64,000 nucleotides of DNA, from the NCBI GenBank assembly GCA_017984135.1, contig JAGNZZ010000001.1:119801-183800 (forward strand), written 5' to 3'. Within the stretch, counting starts at the first letter, position 1; each line of letters starts with the position of its first letter. This DNA comes from Chitinophagales bacterium (GTDB lineage Bacteria; Bacteroidota; Bacteroidia; Chitinophagales; JADIYW01). The position numbers and the translations under genes are program-made. A model generated the notes under the pieces. It was not told where the DNA came from, made no database searches, and was given only the letters and a program-made list of their open reading frames with translations. Positions 10,485 to 62,892 of the stretch are shown here, piece by piece.

Positions 10485-10510
10485 GATTTATGAGTTATGA
10501 TTTTTTTTTT
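10485..10510. repeat. Copy of the short dispersed GATTT..TTATGATTTT(T)n repeat family
   Basis: gatttatgagttatgatttttttttt resembles 60881-60903 (gatttcagatttatgattttttt). The 14-mer AGTTATGATTTTTT also occurs at 3547-3560 upstream of phoD. Confidence 0.4.
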
Positions 10511-50394: not shown

Positions 50395-50414
50395 GATTTC
50401 AGAATTATGATTTT
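50395..50414. repeat. Copy of the short dispersed repeat GATTTCAGAnTTATGATTTT
   Basis: gatttcagaattatgatttt matches gatttcagatttatgatttt (60881-60900) at 18 of 20 positions by manual alignment. Lies 25-44 nt upstream of the minus-strand start at 50370. Confidence 0.5.
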
Positions 50415-52001: not shown

Positions 52002-53522
52002 TTAAAGCTTCTTAAATAATCCGCCAAATTCCATCATTTTCATCAAATCAGATACTTTTATTTTTCCGGACATAAATGCTTCTTGAGGATTCAATTTTCC
52101 TGTTTCAACAGCCACGTAAGTGGCATCATCGGTTTCTACGGTGCAGTCAACTGCAATTTGTCCACTATTCCCATTATTAATGATTTCTAAAATACCATCA
52201 TTTATAGATACAAAATACGTTGCTGAATCAAATTTAAATTCCATATTTAAATTTTTTCCTTTTGCTTTCTCTGTTTTAAATCGGGAAGGCAAAGTTTGAA
52301 AAACAGCCTCTACAGAATCTAATGAAGTATGTTCTTCTTTATTGATTGAAGTAGCTCTATCGTAGTTGGTATCATCAATAATCATTTTAGCTAAAATTTC
52401 TCTCATAATTTCTGAGGTTCCACCACCAATTGTTCCGATTCGAGAATCTCTGAATGCTCGTGCAATTTTAAAATCTTCCATATAACCATAACCTCCAAAA
52501 ACTTGTAGAATTTGATAGGCACATTTATCTGCTAATTCGGATGCTAACAGTTTAGAAATAGAACTTTCTTTTACAGCATATTTTCCTTCGTTATGCATTC
52601 TGCAAGTTTGTAATACATAGAATTTTATTGCTTCCGTTTCAGCGGCTAATTGTGCTACTTTGTGTCGCAGTACTTGAAATTTATTAATTGGACGACCAAA
52701 TGCATGTCTTTGACTCATATATTCCAATCCATATTGTATCATGCCTTCGCAAGCGGAATATCCCATGATTGAACCTGCTAATCGTTCTAATTGCAAGCCG
52801 CCCATTAAATAATAAAATCCTTTTCCTTCTTCGCCTAATAAATTTTTTGTTGGCACTTTTACATTATCAAAATGCAATTCTGCCGTGTCAGATGCATGCC
52901 AACCTAATTTTTTTAATTTGGTTTTAGATATGCCTTCACTATTTAAATCTACCACCAACAAACTTACGCCTGCTGCGCCAGCACTTGTGTTGGTTTTACA
53001 AACCAAGATTACAAAATGCCCGTAAACGCCATTAGTGATAAATGTTTTAGAGCCATTAACAACGTAGTAATCACCTTCTTTTATTGCGCGAGTTTGTATG
53101 TTAGCCACATCGCTGCCTGCACCTGGTTCTGTGATGCCAATACTGCCAATTTTTTCGCCGGCAATGGCAGCTTTGAAAAATGTTTCTTTTAAGTATTCAC
53201 TTCCATGATGTAAGATGTATGGACTGCTCATGCATACTTGTACGGCTGCCGTGATGGCAAAACCGCCAGAAAAGACTTTAGACACTTCTTCTAACATGAC
53301 AACAGTATAGAAAAAGTCGAGATTGCTTCCGCCATATTGCTCTGGAAAGCTGAGTCCGAAGTAACCCATTTCGCCAAATTTTTTCCAAAATTCACGAGGA
53401 ATTTTTCCATCTAATTCCCATTGGTCGATGTGAGGAACGGCTTCTGCTTTTAAAAAATCTTGAATGGATTTTCTGAACATTTCATGTTCTTCTGTAAAAT
53501 AGTAGGATAGTGCTGTTGACAT
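52002..53522 (-). CDS. Acyl-CoA dehydrogenase fused to a C-terminal SCP2 sterol-carrier-like domain (paralog 1)
   Basis: ACAD core to ~aa 385 (GITEPGAGSD..., GGYGYMEDF...IGGGTSEIM). The last ~110 aa (LPSRFKTEKAKG...LNPQEAFMSGKIKVSDLMKMMEFGGLF) are SCP2-like. Confidence 0.85.
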   Translation of the reverse strand: MSTALSYYFTEEHEMFRKSIQDFLKAEAVPHIDQWELDGKIPREFWKKFGEMGYFGLSFPEQYGGSNLDFFYTVVMLEEVSKVFSGGFAITAAVQVCMSSPYILHHGSEYLKETFFKAAIAGEKIGSIGITEPGAGSDVANIQTRAIKEGDYYVVNGSKTFITNGVYGHFVILVCKTNTSAGAAGVSLLVVDLNSEGISKTKLKKLGWHASDTAELHFDNVKVPTKNLLGEEGKGFYYLMGGLQLERLAGSIMGYSACEGMIQYGLEYMSQRHAFGRPINKFQVLRHKVAQLAAETEAIKFYVLQTCRMHNEGKYAVKESSISKLLASELADKCAYQILQVFGGYGYMEDFKIARAFRDSRIGTIGGGTSEIMREILAKMIIDDTNYDRATSINKEEHTSLDSVEAVFQTLPSRFKTEKAKGKNLNMEFKFDSATYFVSINDGILEIINNGNSGQIAVDCTVETDDATYVAVETGKLNPQEAFMSGKIKVSDLMKMMEFGGLFKKL

Positions 53523-53563: not shown

Positions 53564-53938
53564 TTAGTTTATTTTAATATTTAACTTTGAAGTTGATATT
53601 ATTTTAGTGAGTATTTTTCTAATTTCTAATAGTTTATCAATTAAATTTTGAGTATCAGGATAGGTATCAACTGCATTGCATATTTCTAACCAATATTCAG
53701 TTTCTTCCAATTCCTTTAATGCAATTTTTATTTTATGAATAAAATCATTTTTACTTTCAGCATTTTGTGCTTCTCTTACATTTGCACCAATTGATGTTCC
53801 TGATTTTAATAATTGATTTGAAATAATAAATTTTCTATTTGATTCTAATAATTCACAATACATGACTTTTTGAATTGAAAAATCAAAAGTCAATTTTAAT
53901 ATTGGATTGCTATTTTTTTCCATAATAGATTTTTTCAT
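53564..53938 (-). CDS. Four-helix-bundle protein (23S rRNA intervening-sequence protein family)
   Basis: SIGANVREAQNAESKNDFIHKIKIALKELEETEYWLEI, the family's hallmark. Confidence 0.85.
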   Translation of the reverse strand: MKKSIMEKNSNPILKLTFDFSIQKVMYCELLESNRKFIISNQLLKSGTSIGANVREAQNAESKNDFIHKIKIALKELEETEYWLEICNAVDTYPDTQNLIDKLLEIRKILTKIISTSKLNIKIN

Positions 53939-53941
53939 TCC

Positions 53942-53956
53942 TACATTATTTAATTA
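53942..53956. repeat. Right arm of the perfect 15-bp inverted repeat; overlaps the stop codon of ACAD-SCP2 paralog 2
   Basis: tacattatttaatta. Its last 3 nt (53954-53956, tta) are the TAA stop of the 53954..55480 gene. Confidence 0.7.
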
Positions 53957-55480
53957 TTTTATTGTTTCATTATTAAATTTTCGGAACAAAGTACCTAACT
54001 GCATCATTTTTCCTAAATCACTTACTTGAACTTTGCCACTCATAAATGCTTCTTGCGGATTAAGATTTCCTGTTTCAATGGCAATGTACGTTGCTTGGTT
54101 AGTAGTTACTATCAAGTCCACAGTTGACGGTCGACGGTCGACAGTGGACAAAGCAACTTGCTTGTTTTTTATTTGAACCCAATGATTTTTTTCATCTTCA
54201 AATTCAAACAACACATTCAACACTACTCCATCTGCTTTTTCTGTTTTTAATCTCGAAGGTAAACTATTGATGATATCATCAATGCTTACATCTTTAGATT
54301 GTGGTCGGTCGACTGTGGGCTGATAGCTTTTATCATCAATAACCATTTTCGATATAATCTCCAACATAATTTCTGATGTTCCACCGCCGATAGTGCCTAA
54401 GCGTGAATCTCGGAAAAAACGTGCCGCTTTGTATTCTTCCATATAACCATAACCACCAAACATTTGCAAACATTGATAGCCTAATTTATCAGATAATTCT
54501 GTGGCTAAATATTTTGACATAGAAGCTTCTTTAACGCAATATTTTTTCTCGTTATGCATTTGGCAAATTAAATAGGTATAAGTTTTTATACTTTCTAATT
54601 CTGCACTGAGTTGTGCCATTCGATGTCGCAAAACTTGAAATTTATTGATGCTTTTTCCAAATGCTTTGCGTTCACTCATATATTGCAAGGTGTATTGTAT
54701 CATTAATTCAGATGCAGCAATTGCTCCTAAGGCTAAGGTCAATCTGTCTAATTCAAAACGCTGCATGATGTAGTAAAATCCTTTGTTTGCTTCACCTAAT
54801 AAATTGGATATTGGCACTTCCACCTTATCGAATGCAATTTCTGCCGTATCACTGGCTTTCCAACCTAATTTTTTCAAATTATTTCTCGAAACACCTTTTG
54901 CATTTCCATCTACCAAAATCATAGATATACCACTTGCGCCAGAGTTGGCAGTTTTGCAAGCTACAATCATATAATCGGCTAAATAGCCATTGGTAATAAA
55001 ACATTTGCTTCCGTTGATGATGTATTTATCACCTTGTTGGATTGCTGTAGTTTTTATTCCGGCAACATCGCTTCCTGCGTGTGGCTCAGTAATGGCTAAA
55101 CATCCAACTATTTCTCCGGCAATGGCTTTATGTAAATATTTTTCTTTTAATTCGTCAGATGCTTCGTGTTTTAAATGCGACATAGACAAATATGGATGTG
55201 CGGAAATGCTTGCTGCAAAACCACCGCTCCAACATTTGCCTACTTCTTCAATAAAAATAACATCGTACCAAAAATCTAAATTAGAACCGCCGTATTTTTC
55301 TTCTTGCGTAATCCCAAAAAATCCCATTTCACCAAAACGCTTAAAAATTTCTCTGGGCAAAAATCCATCTTCTTCCCATTGGTCAATATTGGGTATTACT
55401 TCTTTATCCAAAAAATCGCGAAACGTTTTTCTAAATAATTGATGTTCCTCTTTTAAATAATATTGTTCTAAAATGCTCAT
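53954..55480 (-). CDS. Acyl-CoA dehydrogenase fused to a C-terminal SCP2 sterol-carrier-like domain (paralog 2)
   Basis: Same architecture as 52002..53522 (GGYGYMEEY...IGGGTSEIM; LPSRLKTEKADG...LNPQEAFMSGKVQVSDLGKMMQLGTLF). Confidence 0.85.
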   Translation of the reverse strand: MSILEQYYLKEEHQLFRKTFRDFLDKEVIPNIDQWEEDGFLPREIFKRFGEMGFFGITQEEKYGGSNLDFWYDVIFIEEVGKCWSGGFAASISAHPYLSMSHLKHEASDELKEKYLHKAIAGEIVGCLAITEPHAGSDVAGIKTTAIQQGDKYIINGSKCFITNGYLADYMIVACKTANSGASGISMILVDGNAKGVSRNNLKKLGWKASDTAEIAFDKVEVPISNLLGEANKGFYYIMQRFELDRLTLALGAIAASELMIQYTLQYMSERKAFGKSINKFQVLRHRMAQLSAELESIKTYTYLICQMHNEKKYCVKEASMSKYLATELSDKLGYQCLQMFGGYGYMEEYKAARFFRDSRLGTIGGGTSEIMLEIISKMVIDDKSYQPTVDRPQSKDVSIDDIINSLPSRLKTEKADGVVLNVLFEFEDEKNHWVQIKNKQVALSTVDRRPSTVDLIVTTNQATYIAIETGNLNPQEAFMSGKVQVSDLGKMMQLGTLFRKFNNETIK

Positions 55481-55498
55481 ATTTTCTCGTGATTTATT

Positions 55499-55590
55499 TA
55501 CCGCAAAGAGCGCAAAGGCTACCGCAAAGTTCGAAGAGGTTTATTTTTATAACCGCAAAGTATTTTAAGTTTTTCGCAAAGTTTTAAAGG
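55499..55590. repeat. CGCAAAG-motif repeat block (five copies), left flank of the GxxExxY gene
   Basis: cgcaaag at 55502, 55511, 55523, 55554 and 55575. The sub-block aaccgcaaag-N10-tttttcgcaaag (55551-55582) is mirrored at 56052-56083. Confidence 0.7.
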
Positions 55591-55591
55591 T

Positions 55592-55969
55592 TTATAATCC
55601 GTTTACTATTCTTTTTATTCCATGTTTTAAAAGGGTTACATTGAAATTTATTAATAAGCCAAGTTTGTAATTTCCAAGTTTTAAGTAAGTAAGCGTTTGT
55701 GCTAAATGAATGTCATTTAACGCTTCCACACTTTTTATTTCAATTACTAATTTTTCTTCCACCAATAAATCAATTCTATAACCGCAATCAAGTTTAACTT
55801 CTTCAAATAGTAATGGTATTGCTTTTTCTTTGTCAACTTTTAATCCTTCCTTTTTCAACTTATAATATAAACATTCTTGGTATGCACTTTCTAAAAGCCC
55901 AGGTCCTAATGCATTATGAACATCAATTGCTATACCTATAACAAAATGTGATAATTCATTTTCTTTCAT
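55592..55969 (-). CDS. GxxExxY protein (PD-(D/E)XK nuclease-fold family)
   Basis: GLLESAY motif and a D...E.K block (RIDLLVEEKLVIEIK), 125 aa. Confidence 0.85.
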   Translation of the reverse strand: MKENELSHFVIGIAIDVHNALGPGLLESAYQECLYYKLKKEGLKVDKEKAIPLLFEEVKLDCGYRIDLLVEEKLVIEIKSVEALNDIHLAQTLTYLKLGNYKLGLLINFNVTLLKHGIKRIVNGL

Positions 55970-56040
55970 TTTCTTCTATTATTACTTTGCTATAATTCCA
56001 TATTTGCTTTTTGCTATATAGTTGATAAATCATTTCAACT

Positions 56041-56083
56041 TACTTTGTGTCCTTTGCGAAAAATCTTTGAGCTCTTTGCGGTT
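56041..56083. repeat. Inverted CGCAAAG-motif arm, right flank of the GxxExxY gene
   Basis: Reverse complement reads aaccgcaaagagctcaaagatttttcgcaaaggacacaaagta, an imperfect inverted copy of 55551-55590. Both aaccgcaaag and tttttcgcaaag are exact. Confidence 0.65.
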
Positions 56084-56088
56084 AATGA

Positions 56089-56952
56089 TTAATTAATTGT
56101 TTTGATATTCAGCATTTCTCTTGTCTCAGAAATACTTGCAATTTCTCTGTCTAACATACGTGCTAATGTTGCGCCGGCTTCTACACATTCGCCGTTTGAT
56201 TTTGCCATTTCGCCATTGGGTAAGTAGAAATTATCTTCTAATCCAACTCGAAAATTTCCACCCATCGTACAAGCAATAGCAGCCAATTGCCATTGCTTTC
56301 TACTGATAGCAATCACTTGCCAAAATTCATTTTCCGGTACTTGCTTTATTTGATGCATTAAATTTTCTACTGTTGCAGGAATACCACCAAGCACGCCCAT
56401 TACTAAGCTGTAACATGCATTATCAGGAATTAATCCCATTTCTCGAAGTGGCACAACATTATGAATATGTCCGGTGTCGAAACATTCCATTTCCGGACAA
56501 ATATTATTTTCATTCATTGTTTTTACAACTTTAATCATCGTGTCAAAGGAGTTTTCAAAAACGGCATTCCAATAAAATTGTTTTTGTTTTTTGGAAAAGA
56601 TAGCATAGTTCATGCTGCCCATATTAAACGCTGCCATATCGGGTTTTGTAATCGGCAAATGCTTGATTCTTTCTTCTACGGAAAGACCGATTGCGCCTGT
56701 AGAAAAATTGATAATCACATCTGAAGAATGTTTGCGTACCTCCGCTTTAATTTCTTCAAATACTTCTGTTCGCCAACTTGGAATACCATTGTCTTCGCGC
56801 GCGTGAATGTGTACAATACTTGCGCCGGCATCTACTGCGCGTTTGGCTTCTTCACCTAATTCTCTTGGTGTGTATGGTATGGCAGGACAATGTGAACGGT
56901 TGGTGGCTGCTCCTGTGAGCGCTGCACTTAGTATTAGTTTTTTGTTTGACAT
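56089..56952 (-). CDS. Beta-keto acid cleavage enzyme family protein (BKACE; 3-keto-5-aminohexanoate cleavage enzyme-like, DUF849)
   Basis: LTGAATNRSHCPAIPYTPRELGEEAKRAVDAGASIVHIHAR, typical BKACE N-terminus, ~287 aa TIM-barrel size. Confidence 0.8.
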   Translation of the reverse strand: MSNKKLILSAALTGAATNRSHCPAIPYTPRELGEEAKRAVDAGASIVHIHAREDNGIPSWRTEVFEEIKAEVRKHSSDVIINFSTGAIGLSVEERIKHLPITKPDMAAFNMGSMNYAIFSKKQKQFYWNAVFENSFDTMIKVVKTMNENNICPEMECFDTGHIHNVVPLREMGLIPDNACYSLVMGVLGGIPATVENLMHQIKQVPENEFWQVIAISRKQWQLAAIACTMGGNFRVGLEDNFYLPNGEMAKSNGECVEAGATLARMLDREIASISETREMLNIKTIN

Positions 56953-56979
56953 TTATTTGATTTTTTTTGTTTATTTATT

Positions 56980-57140
56980 AACCGCAAAGTTTGCTAAGTA
57001 ATATATTCGCAAAGATTGCAAAGTTTTTATTTCTATTTTTCCATTTTTATATTAACCACAAAATATGCTAAGTTATTTCAAAGTATTCAAGATTTTCTAC
57101 AAGAACTTTGCGTAATTCTGAAACTTCGAGATTTGCGGTT
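56980..57140. repeat. Gene-less CGCAAAG inverted-repeat element (MITE-like or empty cassette)
   Basis: aaccgcaaag...ttcgcaaag...ttgcaaag (56980-57025) faces the inverted ctttgcg...tttgcggtt (57098-57140). A degenerate third copy lies at 57054-57090. No ORF lies between them. Confidence 0.6.
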
Positions 57141-57146
57141 AGTATT

Positions 57147-57971
57147 TTAATTTCCAATCCAATTTGGTTTTCGTTTTTCTTTGAATGCAGTTAAGCCTTC
57201 AGCTGCATCTTTACTTTGTAAACATTGCATCAACATAGCATGCAAATATTTGTGTTTTTCATCGGCATTTTTTGTTTTCATTTCTTGAAATGCTTTCAAG
57301 CCCAATCGTATGGCAGTAGGTGATTGTTCTTTGATTGCTGCAATTAATTCTTGTACTCGATTTTCTAAATTATCTGCAGTTACTACTTCAGAAACCAATC
57401 CGATTTCTTTTGCTTCACTTGCTGTCAATGTTTTAGCTCGAATGCATAAGTCTAACAGTTGGCGTGCCGACATTAAAGGCTCTAATGTTGCCATTACTTG
57501 AAATGGAAAAATGCCGCGTTTTACTTCAGGCAATCCAAATTTGGCTTCTTCAACGGCGATGACGTGTGTGCAACCACCAATCATTAAAAATCCACCGGCA
57601 TAAACATCGGCATGTACTTGTGCAATGCAAGGTTTATGTAAGCCGTTGAATTCATCGCCGAGTTTGACCATATCTTTTGGCATAGGTATGGTAGATTGTT
57701 TTTCGGCAGTGTTTTCACCAGCAAAGGCTTTTAAATCTGCACCGGCACAAAAGGTTGGTCCGTTGGCTTTGAGAACCACGCACCATATAGCATTGTTGTA
57801 ATGTGCATAAGCTAATGCGAATGCTAATTCATTTGCTAAAGGTGCGTGAAAAGCATTGCGTTTTTCCGGTCGATTGAGTGTGATGGTTAACACGTTTTCC
57901 TTTTCTTCGACAAGTAGGTAAGTAAAACTTTGTTCGTTGAAATTATGGATGTCTTGTTGTGAGTAGAGCAT
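57147..57971 (-). CDS. Enoyl-CoA hydratase/isomerase (crotonase) family; by context probably methylglutaconyl-CoA hydratase
   Basis: Crotonase fold motifs (FCAGADLK, GGGFLMIGGC-like, LPEVKRGIFP). Located between the MCC subunit genes and BKACE. Confidence 0.8.
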   Translation of the reverse strand: MLYSQQDIHNFNEQSFTYLLVEEKENVLTITLNRPEKRNAFHAPLANELAFALAYAHYNNAIWCVVLKANGPTFCAGADLKAFAGENTAEKQSTIPMPKDMVKLGDEFNGLHKPCIAQVHADVYAGGFLMIGGCTHVIAVEEAKFGLPEVKRGIFPFQVMATLEPLMSARQLLDLCIRAKTLTASEAKEIGLVSEVVTADNLENRVQELIAAIKEQSPTAIRLGLKAFQEMKTKNADEKHKYLHAMLMQCLQSKDAAEGLTAFKEKRKPNWIGN

Positions 57972-57976
57972 ATTTA

Positions 57977-58006
57977 TTTATGATTTATGAATTCAGATTT
58001 GAGATT
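57977..58006. repeat. 30-nt AT-rich element tttatgatttatgaattcagatttgagatt
   Basis: 28 of 30 positions match the reverse complement of 61253-61282 by manual alignment. Contains the palindrome TGAATTCA. Lies 6-35 nt upstream of the hydratase start. Confidence 0.6.
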
Positions 58007-58030
58007 AATTTATTCTAACTTTACTTTTCA

Positions 58031-58285
58031 TTTTTTTATGAGATTCCCTTTTACAAGGGAATGACATTTATATCTTAATGTAACCACGTCATTCTCACGA
58101 AAGTGGGAATCTTATTTTATTCCATTTTTATTTTCATTTTATATTTTTTTGAGATTCCCTTTTACAAGGGAATGACATTTATATCTTAATGTAACCACGT
58201 CATTCTCACGAAAGTGGGAATCTTATTTTATTCCATTTTTTCTTTTCATTTTTTTATGAGATTCCCTTTTACAAGGGAATGACAT
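58031..58285. repeat. 2.3 tandem copies of a 107-111 bp structured repeat, downstream flank of the GIY-YIG gene in gene orientation
   Basis: Anchor 'gattccc' at 58042, 58153 and 58260. Each unit has hairpin 1 (attccctt-ttac-aagggaat) and hairpin 2 (attc[t/c]cac-gaaa-gtgggaat). The third copy is cut after hairpin 1 by the gene's stop codon. Confidence 0.85.
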
Positions 58286-58636
58286 TTAATATCCAAAATA
58301 TTTTTTAGATTCATTATAATCTATTATATCCAATTCTGAATACCAATCAATCGCTAAATCTACTCTTTCTTTATTTATAGTATCAATTAATTCATCTTTC
58401 CATTTTCTATTCCATTTCTTTAATTGTTTTTCTCTTTCTATTGCGTTTGCCATATTATTAAACTCCTCGAAATAAATCAACTTTTTTATTTTGTATTTCT
58501 TTGTGAATACTGAACCATCGCCTTGTTTGTGCTGTAAAATTCTATACCATAAATAAGATGTGACACCAATATAAATTACATTACCAAAATTATTGGAGAT
58601 AATGTAAATACATGGATGTTTATTGTCTATTCTCAT
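58286..58636 (-). CDS. GIY-YIG nuclease-domain protein (small URI-domain type, COG2827/UPF0213-like)
   Basis: IYIISNNFGNVIYIGVTSYLWYRILQHKQG...FTKKY...LIYFEEF...AIEREKQLKKWNRKWK. Confidence 0.9.
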   Translation of the reverse strand: MRIDNKHPCIYIISNNFGNVIYIGVTSYLWYRILQHKQGDGSVFTKKYKIKKLIYFEEFNNMANAIEREKQLKKWNRKWKDELIDTINKERVDLAIDWYSELDIIDYNESKKYFGY

Positions 58637-58644
58637 GTTTAATT

Positions 58645-58845
58645 GTTTTTATAAGATTCCCTTTTACAAGGGAATGACATTTGTGTATTAATGTAACCAT
58701 GTCATTCCCACGAAAGTGGGAATCTTACTTTATTCCATTTTTTCTTTTCATTTTTTTATGAGATTCCCTTTTACAAGGGAATGACATTTGTATCTTAATG
58801 TAACCACGTCATTCCCACGAAAGTGGAAATCTTACATTATTTCAA
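58645..58845. repeat. Two further tandem copies of the same 107-bp structured repeat, upstream flank of the GIY-YIG gene
   Basis: Anchor 'gattccc' at 58655 and 58762, in the same orientation as the left block. The last copy runs up to the mccA stop codon (58846). Confidence 0.85.
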
Positions 58846-60861
58846 TCATTCTTTCATTTTTATCAATAACGTTCCGTTTTCTACAAATTGTTTTTCATTA
58901 ACATATATTTCTTCTACTTCGCCGTCGCTGTGGGCTTCAATGGTGCTTTCCATTTTCATAGAAATCATTTTTAATAAAGCATCGCCACTTTTTATTTTGT
59001 CGCCGGCTTTTACTAATACTGCCGTTATTTCGCCTGGCATGGGTGCAATGTATGCACCTTTTACTGTTTCTTCAATTGGACTTGGAAATTTATCTACACT
59101 AAACAAAACAATTTGCCCAAGTTGTGGTGAATGTATGAAATATTGATTACCGTTTTTAGAGAAGAAAAATTTTCGACGAATATTATTTATTTCAAAAGTG
59201 TGCCAATTGTTTCGGGATTTCTCTCTCGCCTTAAGCGAGATCGAATGAAGGTGCTCGTTATAGGTATGGTGTTTTGAAGCGAAATGTTTATCTGCAAATG
59301 AAATATGTAAATATCCGTTTTCGTTTTTGTATTCTACCAAAAATTCAAAGCCGTTAAAGCTGTATTTTTCTTGTTGCGCTTGATAGAAATTATTGCGCCA
59401 ACCTGCAGGAACGCCTTTTGCTAAGGATCTTTCATTTTCTCTTTGTAAAAAACGATAATGTTGCAAGGCACAAGTCAAAATATCCAAGGTTTCTTGCGGA
59501 TAATTTTCACCGGTATATTGGAATTTGTTATCCAAGAAATGCGTATCAAAATTTCCATTTTGGAAATCTTCGTTTTGTAATATAGATACTAAGAAATTTT
59601 TGTTTGTTGTAAAACCAGTTAAAACAGTTTCTTGCAATGCTAAAGTCAATTTAGCGATGGTTTCGTTTCTGTTTTTTCCTTTAGCAATTATTTTTGCAAT
59701 CATTGGGTCGTAGAAAGTTGAAATTTCTGAACCGCTTTCAATTCCGGTGTCATAACGCAAACCATCAATAGTTGCAGGTTGCCAATTCAAAATTTTTCCA
59801 CTTACTGGCATAAAATTGTTGGCTGCATCTTCGGCATATAAACGCACTTCAATAGCGTGTCCGTTTTGGGTAATTTCATTTTGTGTAAAAGGAATTGCAC
59901 TTCCTTGTGCTACTTCTATTTGCAATCGAACTAAATCTAAATGGGTAACTTCTTCTGTAACTGGATGTTCGACTTGCAAACGCGTGTTGACTTCCAAAAA
60001 ATAATAAGATTGGTCGTGAGTAACAATAAACTCTACTGTTCCAGCATTATCGTATTGAATAGCTTTACATGCAGCAACAGCCGCATCACCCATTTTTTTT
60101 CGTGTTTCTTCTGTGATAAAAGGAGATGGGCTTTCTTCTATTATCTTTTGATAACGCCGTTGAATACTACATTCACGTTCAAAAATATGCAATGCATTTC
60201 CATGTTTATCTCCAAAAATTTGAAACTCTATATGTCGAGCAGAATCGAAATATTTTTCTATTAAAAGTGTATCATCGCCGAAACCATTTAATGCTTCTGA
60301 TTTTGCTTCGGCAATGGCTTTGTCTAACTCTTTTTCTTCACACACAATGCGCATACCTTTACCGCCACCGCCAGCACTTGCTTTCAATAAAACAGGAAAT
60401 CCAATTTCAATTGACTTTGTTTTAATGGTTTCAATACTTTGGTCATCGCCTTGATAGCCAGGAATGGTTGGAACATGGTGTGCTTGCATAATTTTTTTTG
60501 CACCAATTTTAGAGCCCATCACTTCAATAGCTTTTGGATGAGGTCCAACCCAAATCATGTTTTCAGCTATCACTCGTTGAGCAAATTCAACACGCTCGCT
60601 CAAAAAACCATAACCTGGATGAATAGCATTTGCACCGGTTTTTTTTGCTGCATCCATAATTTTATCGATTATTAAATACGATTCATTCGGTTGCTTTCCT
60701 CCGATACGAACAGCTTCATCAGCGAGTTTAACAAACAATGCATTTTCATCCGCATCAGAAAAAACAGCAACAGTGGCAATGCCCATTTCTCTGCACGTTT
60801 TAAAAATCCTGCAAGCAATTTCCCCACGATTGGCAACTAATAATTTTTTTATTTTAGACAT
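58846..60861 (-). CDS. mccA: Biotin-dependent acyl-CoA carboxylase alpha subunit (biotin carboxylase plus BCCP), methylcrotonyl-CoA carboxylase type by context
   Basis: KKLLVANRGEIACRI start, ATP-grasp motifs, and a C-terminal biotinyl domain (SMKME). Confidence 0.85.
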   Translation of the reverse strand: MSKIKKLLVANRGEIACRIFKTCREMGIATVAVFSDADENALFVKLADEAVRIGGKQPNESYLIIDKIMDAAKKTGANAIHPGYGFLSERVEFAQRVIAENMIWVGPHPKAIEVMGSKIGAKKIMQAHHVPTIPGYQGDDQSIETIKTKSIEIGFPVLLKASAGGGGKGMRIVCEEKELDKAIAEAKSEALNGFGDDTLLIEKYFDSARHIEFQIFGDKHGNALHIFERECSIQRRYQKIIEESPSPFITEETRKKMGDAAVAACKAIQYDNAGTVEFIVTHDQSYYFLEVNTRLQVEHPVTEEVTHLDLVRLQIEVAQGSAIPFTQNEITQNGHAIEVRLYAEDAANNFMPVSGKILNWQPATIDGLRYDTGIESGSEISTFYDPMIAKIIAKGKNRNETIAKLTLALQETVLTGFTTNKNFLVSILQNEDFQNGNFDTHFLDNKFQYTGENYPQETLDILTCALQHYRFLQRENERSLAKGVPAGWRNNFYQAQQEKYSFNGFEFLVEYKNENGYLHISFADKHFASKHHTYNEHLHSISLKAREKSRNNWHTFEINNIRRKFFFSKNGNQYFIHSPQLGQIVLFSVDKFPSPIEETVKGAYIAPMPGEITAVLVKAGDKIKSGDALLKMISMKMESTIEAHSDGEVEEIYVNEKQFVENGTLLIKMKE

Positions 60862-61246
60862 ATTTTGATTTCAGATTTATGATTTCAGATTTATGATTTT
60901 TTTTAGCTTTTAGTGTTTTTAGAATAGCTGAAAATATAGCAGTTAATTCATTTGATTCTTTGATTAATTCTTCTAATCCATTTAATTTTGAATTTGTTTC
61001 TTCAAATAGTTCAACCCAATAAATACATTCATCTGCTTCTTCTTGAACAATATTTATTTTATTGATAAAATCTGGGTTTGATTTACCTCTTAATGCAGAA
61101 CGATAATTTGCACCAACGGATGTTGATGCTCTAACGATTTGTTTAATTATGATTACATTAGCATAAGTCGGTTTTATGTTTTCAGTAAATTTTATAGTAT
61201 TTACAGCAAATTTTTTTGTTCTATTTCGTAGTTCAATTGAGTTCAT
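60854..61246 (-). CDS. Four-helix-bundle protein (23S rRNA intervening-sequence protein family), copy 2
   Basis: SVGANYRSALRGKSNPDFINKINIVQEEADECIYWVEL. The 3' end overlaps the mccA start by 8 nt (TATGTCTAA). Confidence 0.85.
   Translation of the reverse strand: MNSIELRNRTKKFAVNTIKFTENIKPTYANVIIIKQIVRASTSVGANYRSALRGKSNPDFINKINIVQEEADECIYWVELFEETNSKLNGLEELIKESNELTAIFSAILKTLKAKKNHKSEIINLKSKYV
60866..60903. repeat. Perfect 14-nt tandem duplication (gatttcagatttat x2, plus a partial third) with a T-run
   Basis: Units at 60867-60880 and 60881-60894. They encode the last ~13 aa of four-helix-bundle copy 2. Related to 50395-50414, 10485-10510 and 57977-58006. Confidence 0.75.
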
Positions 61247-61252
61247 ATTATA

Positions 61253-61282
61253 AATCTTAAATCTGAATTCTTAAATCATAAA
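61253..61282. repeat. Inverted copy of the 30-nt AT-rich element
   Basis: Reverse complement tttatgatttaagaattcagatttaagatt versus 57977-58006. Lies between the mccB stop (61288) and the four-helix-bundle start (61246). Confidence 0.6.
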
Positions 61283-61287
61283 TTCAA

Positions 61288-62892
61288 TTACATTCTAAAC
61301 ACACCCCAAGCATTTGTTCCTTTTACTTCATTTATATAGGTTAATGCTAATATTAACCCAAATACATGTCGTGTATCTCTTGGGTCGATGATGCCATCAT
61401 CCCAAAGTTGACCTGTAGCAAAGAATGCATTACTTTGTTTTTCTATTTCCATTTTCATAAATTCTTTCATTTGTGTTGCTTGTGTTTCGTCGTATTGTTG
61501 ACCAGATTTAATAGCGGCTTCTTTGCTGACCATTTGCATGACACCAGCTAATTGTTCTGCACCCATAACCGCAATCATAGAGTTTGGATAGGAAAATAAA
61601 AAACGTGGATTATAAGCTCGACCGCACATCGCATAATTTCCTGCGCCATACGATGCGCCCATCATTAAAGTAAACATAGGTACTTCGGAATTAGAAACCG
61701 CATTAATCATCTTGGCACCATCTTTAATAATGCCACTTTGTTCGTAATCTTTTCCCACCATAAATCCTGTAATGTTTTGTAAAAATAGGATAGGTGTGTG
61801 GTTCATATTGCACAACTGAATAAAGTGTGCACCTTTGTTAGACGAATCATTAAATAAAACGCCATTATTTCCGATGATTGCAATAGGATAACCGTGAATT
61901 TTTGCATAACCGCAAACTAACGTAGTGCCATATTCTTTTTTAAACTCGTGAAACTCTGAACCATCTACTATGCGAGCAATTACTTCTCGGCAATCAAAAG
62001 GAACTTTAGTGTCCACAGAAACAATTCCGAGTAACTCGTCGATAGGATAATGAGGTTCTTTATAATTTTGAGATTTGAGATTTTGGATATGAGATTTTAA
62101 ATTTAGATTAGCCATTAATTCTCTTGCAATTCTGATTCCATCTAATTCATCTTGCGCTAAATAATCGGAAACGCCTGAAATTTTTGAATGCATTTCTGCT
62201 CCACCTAAAGTTTCATCATCTACAATTTCATTCGTAGCCATTTTTACTAATGGTGGTCCGGCTAAGAAAACTTTAGCATTGTTTTTAATGAAAATAGTAT
62301 AATCGCTCATACCTGGAATATATGCACCGCCGGCAGTTGAATTTCCAAAAACGATAGAGATCGTTGGCACACCTTGTTTAGAACGACGTGTAATTTCTTT
62401 GAAATTATTTCCACCTAAATTAAACACTTGTGCTTGGTCGGGCAAGTTGGCACCTGCACTTTCCACTAAACTGATTCCTGGTAAATTATTTTCTCGTCCA
62501 ATTTCTGAAATACGTAATGCTTTTTTCAAAGAAGCAATATCAATAGCACCACCTTTATTAGTGCCAACATTTGAAGTGATTAAACACATTTTTCCAGATA
62601 CAAAACCTATACCAGCAACCATAGTGCCACCTGTTCCAAAGCCACCTTTTACACCTAATCCTGCTAAAGGACATAATTCTAAAAATGGAGAATCTTGGTC
62701 GAGTAATAATTCTATTCGTTCACGGGCTAAGAACTTGCCTTGTGATTTCGCTTTAGTAGTATGTTTTTCATCTCCTTGAAATATGGATTGTTTGAGATGT
62801 TTTTCTAACTCAGCAATTTTATCAAGCATCTTAGAATAATTCTCTTTATATGATGCAGCGGTTGTATTTATTTTTGTTTTTATAGTGGACAT
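61288..62892 (-). CDS. mccB: Acyl-CoA carboxylase carboxyltransferase (beta) subunit, methylcrotonyl-CoA carboxylase type
   Basis: N-terminal region (GKFLARERIELLLDQDSPFLELCPLAG) resembles the MCC beta subunit more than PCC beta. Tandem crotonase-like CT domains, 534 aa. Confidence 0.85.
   Translation of the reverse strand: MSTIKTKINTTAASYKENYSKMLDKIAELEKHLKQSIFQGDEKHTTKAKSQGKFLARERIELLLDQDSPFLELCPLAGLGVKGGFGTGGTMVAGIGFVSGKMCLITSNVGTNKGGAIDIASLKKALRISEIGRENNLPGISLVESAGANLPDQAQVFNLGGNNFKEITRRSKQGVPTISIVFGNSTAGGAYIPGMSDYTIFIKNNAKVFLAGPPLVKMATNEIVDDETLGGAEMHSKISGVSDYLAQDELDGIRIARELMANLNLKSHIQNLKSQNYKEPHYPIDELLGIVSVDTKVPFDCREVIARIVDGSEFHEFKKEYGTTLVCGYAKIHGYPIAIIGNNGVLFNDSSNKGAHFIQLCNMNHTPILFLQNITGFMVGKDYEQSGIIKDGAKMINAVSNSEVPMFTLMMGASYGAGNYAMCGRAYNPRFLFSYPNSMIAVMGAEQLAGVMQMVSKEAAIKSGQQYDETQATQMKEFMKMEIEKQSNAFFATGQLWDDGIIDPRDTRHVFGLILALTYINEVKGTNAWGVFRM

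Follow-up and report, generated by a model that had tools for sequence, protein, structure and literature searches.

In the Ssn system, described in 2025 by Chenal et al. (Nat Commun, PMC11893778), a tiny enzyme recognizes hairpin repeats of its own in single-stranded DNA and cleaves them. The repeat, named the "Ssn-related motif" (SRM) in that study, is the dRS3/NTS repeat of Neisseria (PMC11893778). SsnA enzymes from four species bind and cut solely single-stranded DNA beside their own repeat, and are inactive on RNA, double-stranded DNA and the reverse strand (PMC11893778). The characterized enzymes nick just 5′ of the hairpin, and mutation of SsnA residues Y6, Y17 and E64 abolishes cleavage, whereas on the substrate side the 5′ GTC and the 3′ C of the repeat are critical in N. 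meningitidis (PMC11893778). A flanking SRM is present in 71% of Ssn homologues, with homologues being defined by an E value below 1e-10 and a coverage of at least 75% (PMC11893778).

The window analysed here is a 64,000-nucleotide stretch of DNA from a Chitinophagales bacterium (Bacteroidota). It holds a cluster (58031..58845) situated between the mccA gene (biotin carboxylase/mccA-type, 58846-60861, minus strand) and the gene of an ECH-family (enoyl-CoA) hydratase (57147-57971, minus strand). This region is most likely an Ssn-SRM module, composed of a gene for a presumably cd10448-type Ssn-family GIY-YIG endonuclease and a cluster of cognate hairpin repeats. The ssn gene and its repeats are a Bacteroidota example of the published Ssn system and not a new kind of element. 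The module is located within a leucine/branched-chain catabolic operon of co-oriented genes, with which ssn is probably co-transcribed. The flanking genes encode metabolic enzymes, the other neighbours that were checked being small PDDEXK_3, IVP and SCP2-domain genes, and a domain search found no transposase gene among these checked neighbours.

The ssn gene (58286..58636, minus strand) encodes a 116-aa protein that is predicted by Pfam and BLASTP to be a single-domain GIY-YIG nuclease homologous to SsnA. Its sole Pfam match is PF01541 GIY-YIG (residues 8-80, E 8e-15), and no NCBIfam model was found for it. The open reading frame and the Pfam match agree with the preliminary description of this locus, in which a 116-aa GIY-YIG gene lies between the hydratase and mccA genes and the complement of its stop codon (tta, 58286-58288) immediately follows ...gggaatgacat. 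The reference for comparison was the 94-aa N. gonorrhoeae orthologue (L140 998-1282) rather than N. meningitidis CAX49033.1, the gonococcal protein being taken as SsnA by its length, its Y6, Y17 and E64 residues and the 16 NTS flanking its gene. BLASTP gave 43% identity over 91 aa (E 3e-24), with the alignment covering 97% of gonococcal SsnA and 78% of the 116-aa protein, which places the latter within the published definition of a homologue; the tblastn match to the gonococcal orthologue had an E value of 8e-15 in a 7.3-Gb database. Residues Y11, Y22 and E69 align with SsnA Y6, Y17 and E64 at the same spacing (11 and 47), and the four residues Y11, Y22, R32 and E69 do not vary among 27 homologues.

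The locus thus shares with Neisseria Ssn/NTS a single-domain GIY-YIG protein of about 100 aa with aligned catalytic Tyr/Tyr/Glu residues and, on both sides of the gene, clustered GTC-ATTCCC-N8-GGGAAT-C hairpins in mixed orientation. It differs in the 20-aa C-terminal extension of the 116-aa protein relative to SsnA, which is common to its clade, in its Chitinophagales host and in a catabolic-operon position that is conserved between species. Other small GIY-YIG proteins are less close. A PDB sequence search returned only weak matches to UPF0213/YhbQ-type proteins (PDB 1ywl and 1zg2, E 1e-4 and 0.05), which implies that there is no solved Ssn structure. These proteins are likewise about 100 aa long and have only one GIY-YIG domain, but we know of no link between their family and flanking hairpin repeats. 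The homing endonucleases I-TevI and I-BmoI have the catalytic domain and the selfish-gene flavour in common with Ssn, yet they cleave double-stranded DNA at alleles that lack the intron and possess a DNA-binding domain at the C-terminus, whereas the protein described here is a bare domain encoded outside introns and phages. A homing-endonuclease reading was rejected on domain content.

The repeats around ssn comprise five copies of a 107-111 bp unit with nine hairpins of 24 nt each. The 26-mer GATTCCCTTTTACAAGGGAATGACAT occurs exactly five times in the 64 kb (at 58042, 58153, 58260, 58655 and 58762; chance expectation 0), yielding unit periods of 111, 107 and 107 bp, and Tandem Repeats Finder reports two arrays, 58005-58293 (period 111) and 58638-58861 (period 107). 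Both results bear out the five direct copies that had been described, together with their anchors and periods. The second half of the unit, GTCATTCYCACGAAAGTGGGAATC, is found four times (58088, 58199, 58701 and 58808, the last with one mismatch) and is absent from copy 3. The gene had been proposed to replace this half; the half is indeed missing, but copy 3 does not mark a gene-insertion site, since related species have a complete unit downstream of ssn, which argues for a lineage-specific deletion.

All nine hairpins have the form GTC-ATTCCC-N8-GGGAAT-C. Five of them can be recognized when the gene strand is read and four when the other strand is, and the SRMs form inverted pairs. The former are the hairpin 1 copies, each forward on the minus strand: copy 1 (58042..58065), copy 2 (58153..58176), truncated copy 3 (58260..58283), which begins 2 nt past the ssn stop codon, copy 4 (58655..58678, GTCATTCCCTTGTAAAAGGGAATC), the end of which lies 18 nt upstream of the ssn ATG, and copy 5 (58762..58785). 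The latter are the hairpin 2 copies, each forward on the plus strand: copy 1 (58088..58111, GTCATTCTCACGAAAGTGGGAATC) and copy 2 (58199..58222), both with one T.G mismatch, copy 4 (58701..58724, GTCATTCCCACGAAAGTGGGAATC) and copy 5 (58808..58831), in which the single mismatch reported before is C.A. With their native flanks the hairpins read ...ACACAAATGTCATTCCCTTGTAAAAGGGAATCTTA... on the minus strand and ...GTAACCATGTCATTCCCACGAAAGTGGGAATCTTA... on the plus strand. Within 500 bp of ssn, two forward and two reverse hairpins lie upstream and three forward and two reverse hairpins downstream. Hairpin 2 of copy 4 is letter-identical to an NTS variant that occurs six times around N. gonorrhoeae ssnA, where spurious ORFs encode SFPRRRES, SRFRGNDE, VIPAQAGIQ and SFPRKWES.

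The dRS3 core ATTCCC-N8-GGGAAT, the 20-bp definition used in pathogenic Neisseria, is matched exactly by six of the nine hairpins (6 observed vs 0.05 expected), although dRS3 is defined without the oriented flanks present here. In Neisseria, dRS3 is also a site of prophage integration and recombination, and nothing similar was seen at this locus. The hairpins consisting of GTC, an 8-bp stem and C number nine in the 64 kb, every one within the cluster, and no dispersed copies were found in the other 63 kb of the window, in contrast to the hundreds of repeats per Neisseria genome. The genome-wide role of the many-copy Neisseria repeat may therefore not apply here.

A further difference concerns the published degenerate SRM pattern, HGTCWYN(0-2)YYVSBRHN(0-5)WNVSBRGN(0-2)RNCYNB (PMC11893778). 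This pattern does not match anywhere in the window, even when 2 substitutions are allowed, the best window hairpin being 3 substitutions off in a hand alignment, because the inner stem is AT-rich: the gene-strand hairpin has TT-GTAA-AA as its inner stem and loop. The pattern also fails on 54 of the 78 gene-proximal hairpins of homologues, canonical-looking ones included. As a membership criterion it was rejected for being too strict at the last base, and it was treated as a narrow search tool. The experimentally critical parts, namely the palindrome, the 5′ GTC and the 3′ C, are all present in the window hairpins. Since the AT-rich variant escapes the pattern, repeat censuses based on it probably undercount.

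Independent evidence for the link between gene and repeat is provided by positional enrichment and orientation in a sample of 80 distant metagenomic homologues (42-57% identity). Up to 300 nt from the gene, the hairpin density is 3.1 per kb, compared to 0.22 per kb farther away and 0.034 per kb in shuffled sequence, which makes the hairpins 14-fold denser near the gene than at a distance. Their orientation shows the expected bias (36 forward and 14 reverse upstream, 59 reverse and 26 forward downstream), and the typical arrangement places a forward hairpin before the start codon, at a median distance of 36 nt. The hairpin follows ssn homologues regardless of the neighbouring genes. The stem pairs covary (all seven, with changes on both sides) and the GTC and 3′ C are invariant, but this covariation is not independent proof, since the sequences had been preselected as hairpins. 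The suggestion in the preliminary description that small GIY-YIG genes of other phyla come with such palindromes and the spurious peptides these encode is correct: it agrees with the published system (PMC11893778), is borne out by the 80 homologues and can be seen at the gonococcal locus.

The hairpin is also found solitary, in unrelated contexts, in at least six phylum-level groups and in both related and unrelated genomes. A scan of species-representative genomes, a set from which the window's own genome is absent, returned 44 copies of the exact 24-mer in 36 genome stretches from Bacteroidota, Ignavibacteria, KSB1, Peribacteria, Alphaproteobacteria and Bdellovibrionales assemblies, with no GIY-YIG ORF nearby in 33 of the 36. 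The unit boundaries drawn in the preliminary description recur in 7 of the 44 copies, but a doublet of a forward hairpin, a 12-50 nt spacer and a reverse hairpin is commoner (25 of 44). In viral contigs (IMG/VR), the generic hairpin core occurs in at least 120 stretches and an ssn-relative protein is encoded at 10 loci; the small number of the latter points to no clear phage vector.

Two functions had been suggested for the repeats, as recognition substrate of the nuclease or as elements of RNA processing, stability or attenuation. The characterized Ssn enzymes act on single-stranded DNA only, which supports the substrate idea, by analogy with these family members, and leaves the RNA idea unsupported. 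According to the RNA-level explanation, the repeats act mainly in the operon transcript, in processing, stability, attenuation or as a switch, and the GIY-YIG protein is either incidental or itself acts on RNA. The units do lie between co-oriented genes of an operon, in spacers that are very probably transcribed, with no sense-strand terminator interrupting the operon, and their RNA folds stably (-22 to -33 kcal/mol, z-scores -4 to -7). Folding of both strands recovered the two local hairpins and the alternative long-range pairing that had been proposed, which amounts to two alternative conformations; the loops are GNRA-type. The MFE fold of an 84-nt unit is one long hairpin on both strands (z-scores -4.2 to -6.8), the two-hairpin form being 4-11 kcal/mol worse as RNA and 1-4 kcal/mol worse as DNA, and in copy 2 the DNA optimum is the two-hairpin form. 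However, the conserved GTC...C asymmetry is found only on the antisense strand in four of the nine hairpins, the same hairpin stands beside ssn homologues in any gene context as well as alone in the groups listed above, and N. meningitidis SsnA neither binds nor cuts RNA (PMC11893778). No Rfam family was matched, a scan of Rfam 15 (E up to 1) giving sub-threshold, miRNA-precursor-shaped matches of 20-31 bits against cut-offs of 72-100. Furthermore, the notion that wobble changes preserve the pairing fails family-wide: the single mismatches counted on the recognized strand comprise 27 G.T and 26 A.C, so that G.U is not favoured over A.C in either reading and the mismatches carry no signal for which strand folds. 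A primarily RNA-level role is hence improbable, while an extra RNA-level effect may exist, since the cluster hairpins are very probably transcribed.

A related proposal, that the hairpins are terminators or insulators against antisense transcription through the operon, draws on three terminator-like sites in which hairpin 2 is followed by a T-rich run (plus strand only, vs 0.3 expected); no such sites were found on the sense strand, which likewise lends the attenuation idea no support. Yet these T-runs are the mere complement of spacers that are A-rich when read on the gene strand, the hairpin 1 copies lack them, and the hairpins of GC-rich homologues are mostly without a T-run as well. As the proposal in addition leaves the conserved GTC...C flanks and the link to the gene unexplained, we regard it as very improbable.

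The evolution of the locus also speaks for a DNA-level Ssn module. At least five species-level genomes carry ssn at this place in the operon, and in related Chitinophagales the place is filled with differing numbers of units. Compared to the orthologue in L001/L002, ssn has a dN/dS of 0.086 with the same dS as the neighbouring genes and, as judged from these substitution rates, is under purifying selection. It is a long-term, vertically inherited and selected resident of the catabolic operon. The gene-strand AT-rich 24-mer is invariant between species at a synonymous divergence of about 1.3. Neutral tandem duplication of intergenic DNA with chance palindromes and no function would account for the near-identical, head-to-tail copies, but it is contradicted by this cross-species conservation, by the identity of the 24-mer in distant phyla and of one hairpin in Neisseria, and by the 14-fold hairpin enrichment beside homologous genes, and is hardly credible. 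Array length is identical in six strain-level contigs, whereas the number of units shifts between species, presumably via recombination or slippage among the repeats.

More serious is the possibility that an active IS/MITE-like element has left the cluster behind as its footprint. A forward SRM, ssn and a reverse SRM would then make up the autonomous form and short-spacer forward-reverse doublets the non-autonomous form, with Ssn excising or copying the elements via single-stranded intermediates, broadly like IS200/IS605 or REP/RAYT. The inverted-repeat end geometry fits, cuts inferred from the published cleavage would fall just outside each doublet, the unit number varies among related species, and the same hypothesis has been raised by the authors of the Ssn study (PMC11893778). 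The abundance of doublets among the exact 24-mers (reverse hairpin 12-50 nt downstream), mostly in GIY-YIG-free stretches, is likewise in its favour, and a mobile-element family would explain why letter-identical 24-mers occur in at least six phylum-level groups, from Bacteroidota to Bdellovibrionales. On the other hand, the position of ssn is syntenic with a dS equal to that of its neighbours, the array length is constant among strains, target-site duplications were not seen by eye, and ssn relatives are rare in viral contigs. An exact look-up found the Ssn protein at this locus only, as did the look-ups of the PDDEXK_3 and four-helix-bundle proteins for each of these, and hence there is no sign of multiple identical copies. 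In addition, we know of no strand-transfer activity of a GIY-YIG domain alone. An active element of this kind is accordingly unlikely, although it is the least unlikely of the alternatives.

REP/BIME-RAYT systems resemble the cluster in having short extragenic palindromes that form single-stranded DNA hairpins, arranged in inverted-pair clusters flanking one linked small gene. They differ in that RAYT is an HUH/Y1 (IS200/IS605-like Y1) transposase, whereas the gene inside the present repeats encodes a GIY-YIG nuclease; a RAYT reading was rejected on this domain content.

By analogy with the four biochemically tested homologues, the Ssn-SRM module may work as follows. When the DNA becomes single-stranded, at the replication fork, during repair, upon uptake or conjugative entry, or possibly in the non-template strand during transcription, each repeat would fold into an 8-bp hairpin with a GNRA-type tetraloop. 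Ssn would bind this hairpin solely in the GTC...C orientation and nick the single strand a few nt 5′ of the GTC. As the SRMs are arranged in inverted pairs, the cuts are predicted, on both strands, within the 22 nt that separate the two hairpins of each unit. Candidate pay-offs include the trimming or restriction of incoming single-stranded DNA, as in Neisseria, the control of recombination at the locus, and self-maintenance of a selfish module.

Elsewhere in the same operon, flanking inverted repeats of their own accompany a PDDEXK_3/GxxExxY gene (family TIGR04256) and each of two four-helix-bundle 23S-IVS-type genes (family TIGR02436). The window also holds an inverted-repeat pair of the PDDEXK_3 type without a gene, and the flank repeats of the four-helix-bundle type persist without the gene in the relative L002. 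These genes could represent analogous "small protein plus cognate repeat" systems, undescribed as such, and they hint that the principle of a small nuclease plus its own repeat is maybe more general. That ssn modules and gene-less doublets constitute a genuine mobile-element family, by a logic that may extend to the neighbouring small genes with repeats, is unlikely.

In annotations, the gene should be named ssn and the array described as Ssn-related motifs, rather than as a riboswitch-like or attenuator element. What is new at this locus is the Chitinophagales host, the conserved operon position under purifying selection and the AT-rich repeat variant that is invariant between species. Natural enzyme/substrate pairs such as this one could add to the available sequence-specific cutters of single-stranded DNA. 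The vertical stability of ssn in a housekeeping operon, together with purifying selection, argues for a retained cellular function and not for a recent invasion.

The repeat array between the enoyl-CoA hydratase gene (57147-57971) and the mccA-type biotin carboxylase gene (58846-60861) is a genuine, non-random feature, correctly observed in the preliminary description. The 26-mer GATTCCCTTTTACAAGGGAATGACAT is confined, within the window, to the five positions reported there (58042, 58153, 58260, 58655 and 58762), with none expected by chance, and Tandem Repeats Finder reports two arrays with the same periods of 111 and 107. The copies show few differences when aligned. Four of them carry the second half of the unit, GTCATTCYCACGAAAGTGGGAATC, the final one with one mismatch. 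The cluster (58031-58845, minus strand) contains the described GIY-YIG gene of 116 aa (58286-58636, minus strand; Pfam E 8e-15), whose stop codon indeed adjoins a half unit. All nine hairpins in the window consist of GTC, an ATTCCC-type 8-bp stem, a tetraloop and a C; the forward orientation is on the minus strand for five of them and on the plus strand for the other four.

This is exactly the form of the repeats of the Ssn/NTS system described in Neisseria (Chenal et al., Nat Commun 2025; PMC11893778), namely GTC, a palindromic stem and C in mixed orientations. About half of the Neisseria dRS3 copies (ATTCCC-N8-GGGAAT) sit inside an oriented element of ~28 nt, the NTS (CGTCATTCCCGCGMAVGCGGGAATCYRG), whose critical positions are the base triplet on the 5' side of the palindrome and the C immediately 3' to it (PMC11893778). 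SsnA is a 94-aa single-domain GIY-YIG protein, the gene of which is flanked in many phyla by NTS-like "Ssn-related motifs" (SRMs), with at least one SRM in 71% of the homologues and SRMs on both sides in 42% (PMC11893778). The exact dRS3 definition is matched by six of the nine window hairpins (0.05 expected). No window hairpin matches the printed degenerate SRM pattern, from which they are three substitutions away by hand alignment because their inner stem is AT-rich. The same pattern misses 54 of the 78 gene-proximal hairpins in our metagenome homologue sample and is regarded as a narrow search device.

The gonococcal ssnA locus (NZ_CP119140.1, 1881278-1883550) was reached through PLSDB, in which N. 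gonorrhoeae chromosomes are filed as plasmids; these complete 2.17-Mb records are almost unannotated and constitute a data-quality trap. With the window protein as query, tblastn gave one match site per N. gonorrhoeae chromosome (E 8e-15), a 94-aa ORF with Y6, Y17 and E64 as described for SsnA (PMC11893778) and with 16 NTS in the surrounding 2.27 kb. The two proteins are 43% identical over 91 residues (BLASTP, E 3e-24), and the window residues Y11, Y22 and E69, invariant in 27 homologues, line up with the SsnA catalytic residues. Moreover, six of the gonococcal NTS share the sequence GTCATTCCCACGAAAGTGGGAATC, which is identical to hairpin 2 of copy 4. Spurious repeat-encoded peptides of the kind named in the preliminary description are present at this locus (SFPRRRES, SRFRGNDE, VIPAQAGIQ) and are also found as false extensions, N- or C-terminal, of several homologues in databases.

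The earlier statement that small GIY-YIG genes are accompanied by such palindromes is supported by a metagenome scan with the 27-sequence alignment, which yielded 80 loci with relatives of 42-57% identity. A hairpin was counted where GTC, a stem of 8 bp allowing a single mismatch, a 3-9-nt loop and C followed one another, a definition that leaves the stem sequence free. Hairpin density is 3.1 per kb at up to 300 nt from the gene, compared to 0.22 per kb farther away and 0.034 per kb in shuffled sequence; a covariation count is biased, as the sequences were picked for being hairpins, whereas this positional enrichment is free of that bias. A hairpin was found upstream at 36 of 74 loci, downstream at 44 of 70 and on both sides at 22 of 64, with 36 forward versus 14 reverse hairpins upstream and 59 reverse versus 26 forward downstream. 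The stems vary by lineage (ATTCCCGC, ATGCTGAA, ACCCTGAA, ATGCCGGA and others), while GTC and the 3' C are constant.

Folding of the 84-nt unit yields a single long hairpin on both strands, under RNA as well as DNA parameters, with GATTCCC/GGGAATC as outer stem, GGGAATGAC/GTCATTCCC as inner stem and z-scores of -4.2 to -6.8. The alternative fold, two local 8-bp hairpins with tetraloops, is 4-11 kcal/mol weaker as RNA and just 1-4 kcal/mol weaker as DNA, where it is the optimum for copy 2, so that the earlier term 'switchable' is thermodynamically fair. An action of the repeats at the RNA level is very improbable. Sites resembling intrinsic terminators, hairpin 2 followed by CTTAYTTTAT, do occur (58091-58110, 58202-58221 and 58704-58723; three found versus 0.3 expected), but solely on the plus strand, which is antisense to the operon; the sense strand has none, and an Rfam search returned no family match.

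The closest relatives of the window protein (82-83% identity) are encoded in Chitinophagales assemblies, likewise between mccA and the hydratase gene. At two such loci, L001 and L002, complete units flank ssn on both sides, with 1.5 and 3.5 units upstream, respectively, and 1.5 downstream in each; truncation of copy 3 in the window thus reflects a local deletion and not, as previously proposed, a replacement of half a unit by the gene. The segment between the two hairpins measures ~50 nt in these loci and 22 nt in the window. Between the three loci, almost all copies of the gene-strand hairpin GTCATTCCCTTGTAAAAGGGAATCTCA are unaltered, while the plus-strand hairpin is variable. For ssn, amino acid identity to L001/L002 is 82.6%, with dS 1.3 and dN/dS 0.086; the neighbours mccA (80%), ECH (88-89%) and BKACE (94%) together range from 1.1 to 1.6 in dS and from 0.03 to 0.11 in dN/dS. 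Such a pattern points to vertical inheritance under purifying selection. In other assemblies the exact protein is found at this locus only, for instance in GCA_035911035.1, with 2 differences from the window in 2,490 compared positions. Array length is the same across six strain-level contigs, the sole variation being two SNPs in the central segment of copy 4. Taken together, the analysis shows that the window protein and its repeats are members of the Ssn/SRM system, both under selection here.

Copies also occur apart from the gene. Among species-representative genomes, 36 stretches contain the exact 24-mer GTCATTCCCTTGTAAAAGGGAATC; their labels include Chitinophagales, Flavobacteriaceae, Bacteroidales, Ignavibacteria, KSB1, Peribacteria, Alphaproteobacteria and Bdellovibrionales. 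A GIY-YIG ORF lies nearby in only three of the 36; these are all from Chitinophagales and have the gene either downstream of mccA or in identical repeat context. A reverse-oriented hairpin follows 25 of 44 copies of the 24-mer at 12-50 nt and precedes only seven, so that free-standing copies commonly take the form forward hairpin, spacer, reverse hairpin, the outer ends being GTCA...TGAC. The window array can be read accordingly as three such doublets (58088-58176, 58199-58283 and 58701-58785, plus strand), two hairpins at the ends, and ssn with a 5' hairpin of its own. On this reading, the unit described previously straddles the junction between doublets.

These doublets, together with the identity of the 24-mer across phyla, would fit a mobile element, a hypothesis raised by Chenal et al. 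(PMC11893778). This reading is nevertheless doubtful, as ssn synteny is stable, no target duplications are visible and no joining activity is known. The 24-mer, loop included, is common to assemblies whose labels span six or more phylum-level groups, an 'Enterobacteriaceae' bin among them; either the loop is also constrained, or spread was recent and horizontal, or assemblies are mis-binned. The generic core GTCATTCCC-N8-GGGAATC is found in at least 120 viral or proviral IMG/VR contigs, some with dense arrays (23 copies in L160), and a relative of the nuclease is encoded at only 10 viral loci.

For SsnA of four species, binding to the hairpin requires single-stranded DNA and one orientation, cleavage falls a few nt 5' of the hairpin, and no activity is seen on duplex DNA or RNA (PMC11893778). 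By analogy, the window Ssn would bind folded hairpins in single-stranded DNA and nick 5' of them, which would place cuts in the 22-nt junctions between doublets on both strands. In Neisseria, SsnA trims incoming transforming DNA (PMC11893778), a role that may or may not apply here because the window holds no dispersed repeat copies.

Four small genes, belonging to three families, lie in the operon, where all genes around ssn are on the minus strand, and each of the four is flanked by inverted repeats specific to its family. A PDDEXK_3/GxxExxY gene of 125 aa (55592-55969; TIGR04256, E 2e-42) lies between an acyl-CoA dehydrogenase gene (53954-55480) and the BKACE gene (56089-56952) and is enclosed by inverted repeats based on ACCGCAAAG/CTTTGCGGT (region 55496-56086), for example 55496-55517 with 56065-56086 (22 nt, 91% complementary). 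The whole 600-bp insert is absent from L001 and L002, where the BKACE-dehydrogenase gap is 5 nt. The BKACE-hydratase spacer (56952-57147; 194 nt versus 32-88 nt in L001/L002) holds a gene-less TAACCGCAAA/TTTGCGGTTA pair with the same ends (56976-56988 with 57132-57144), which looks like a miniature derivative of this element. A 130-aa four-helix-bundle gene of 23S rRNA IVS type (60854-61246; TIGR02436) is enclosed, within 60854-61290, by an inverted repeat made up of AATCATAAATCTGAAATC-type units (39 nt; 60861-60899 and 61252-61290, 79% complementary); the gene is present in L001, and L002 has lost the ORF and kept the flanking repeats. A second such gene (53564-53938; 124 aa, 31% identical to the first), between the dehydrogenase gene named above and its paralogue (52002-53522), has its own inverted pair AATTAAATAATGTA/TACATTATTTAATT. 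The AATCATAAATCTGAAATC motif has seven matches in the window versus 0.67 expected, including gene-less ones with 1-3 mismatches at 57989-58006, 50395-50412 and 10485-10502, one of them immediately upstream of the hydratase start and adjoining the Ssn array. Within the carboxyltransferase gene (61288-62892), a 7/14-bp tandem repeat TTTGAGA/ATTTTGAGATATGAG (62065-62109) resembles the ATATGAGAT repeats of the L002 mccB-mccA spacer and may be an intergenic-type repeat that entered the coding region in frame.

A literature search found no report on other small operon genes with their own flanking inverted repeats, those of PDDEXK_3 included. The window system is a new Chitinophagales member of the kind described in 2025 and not categorically new.
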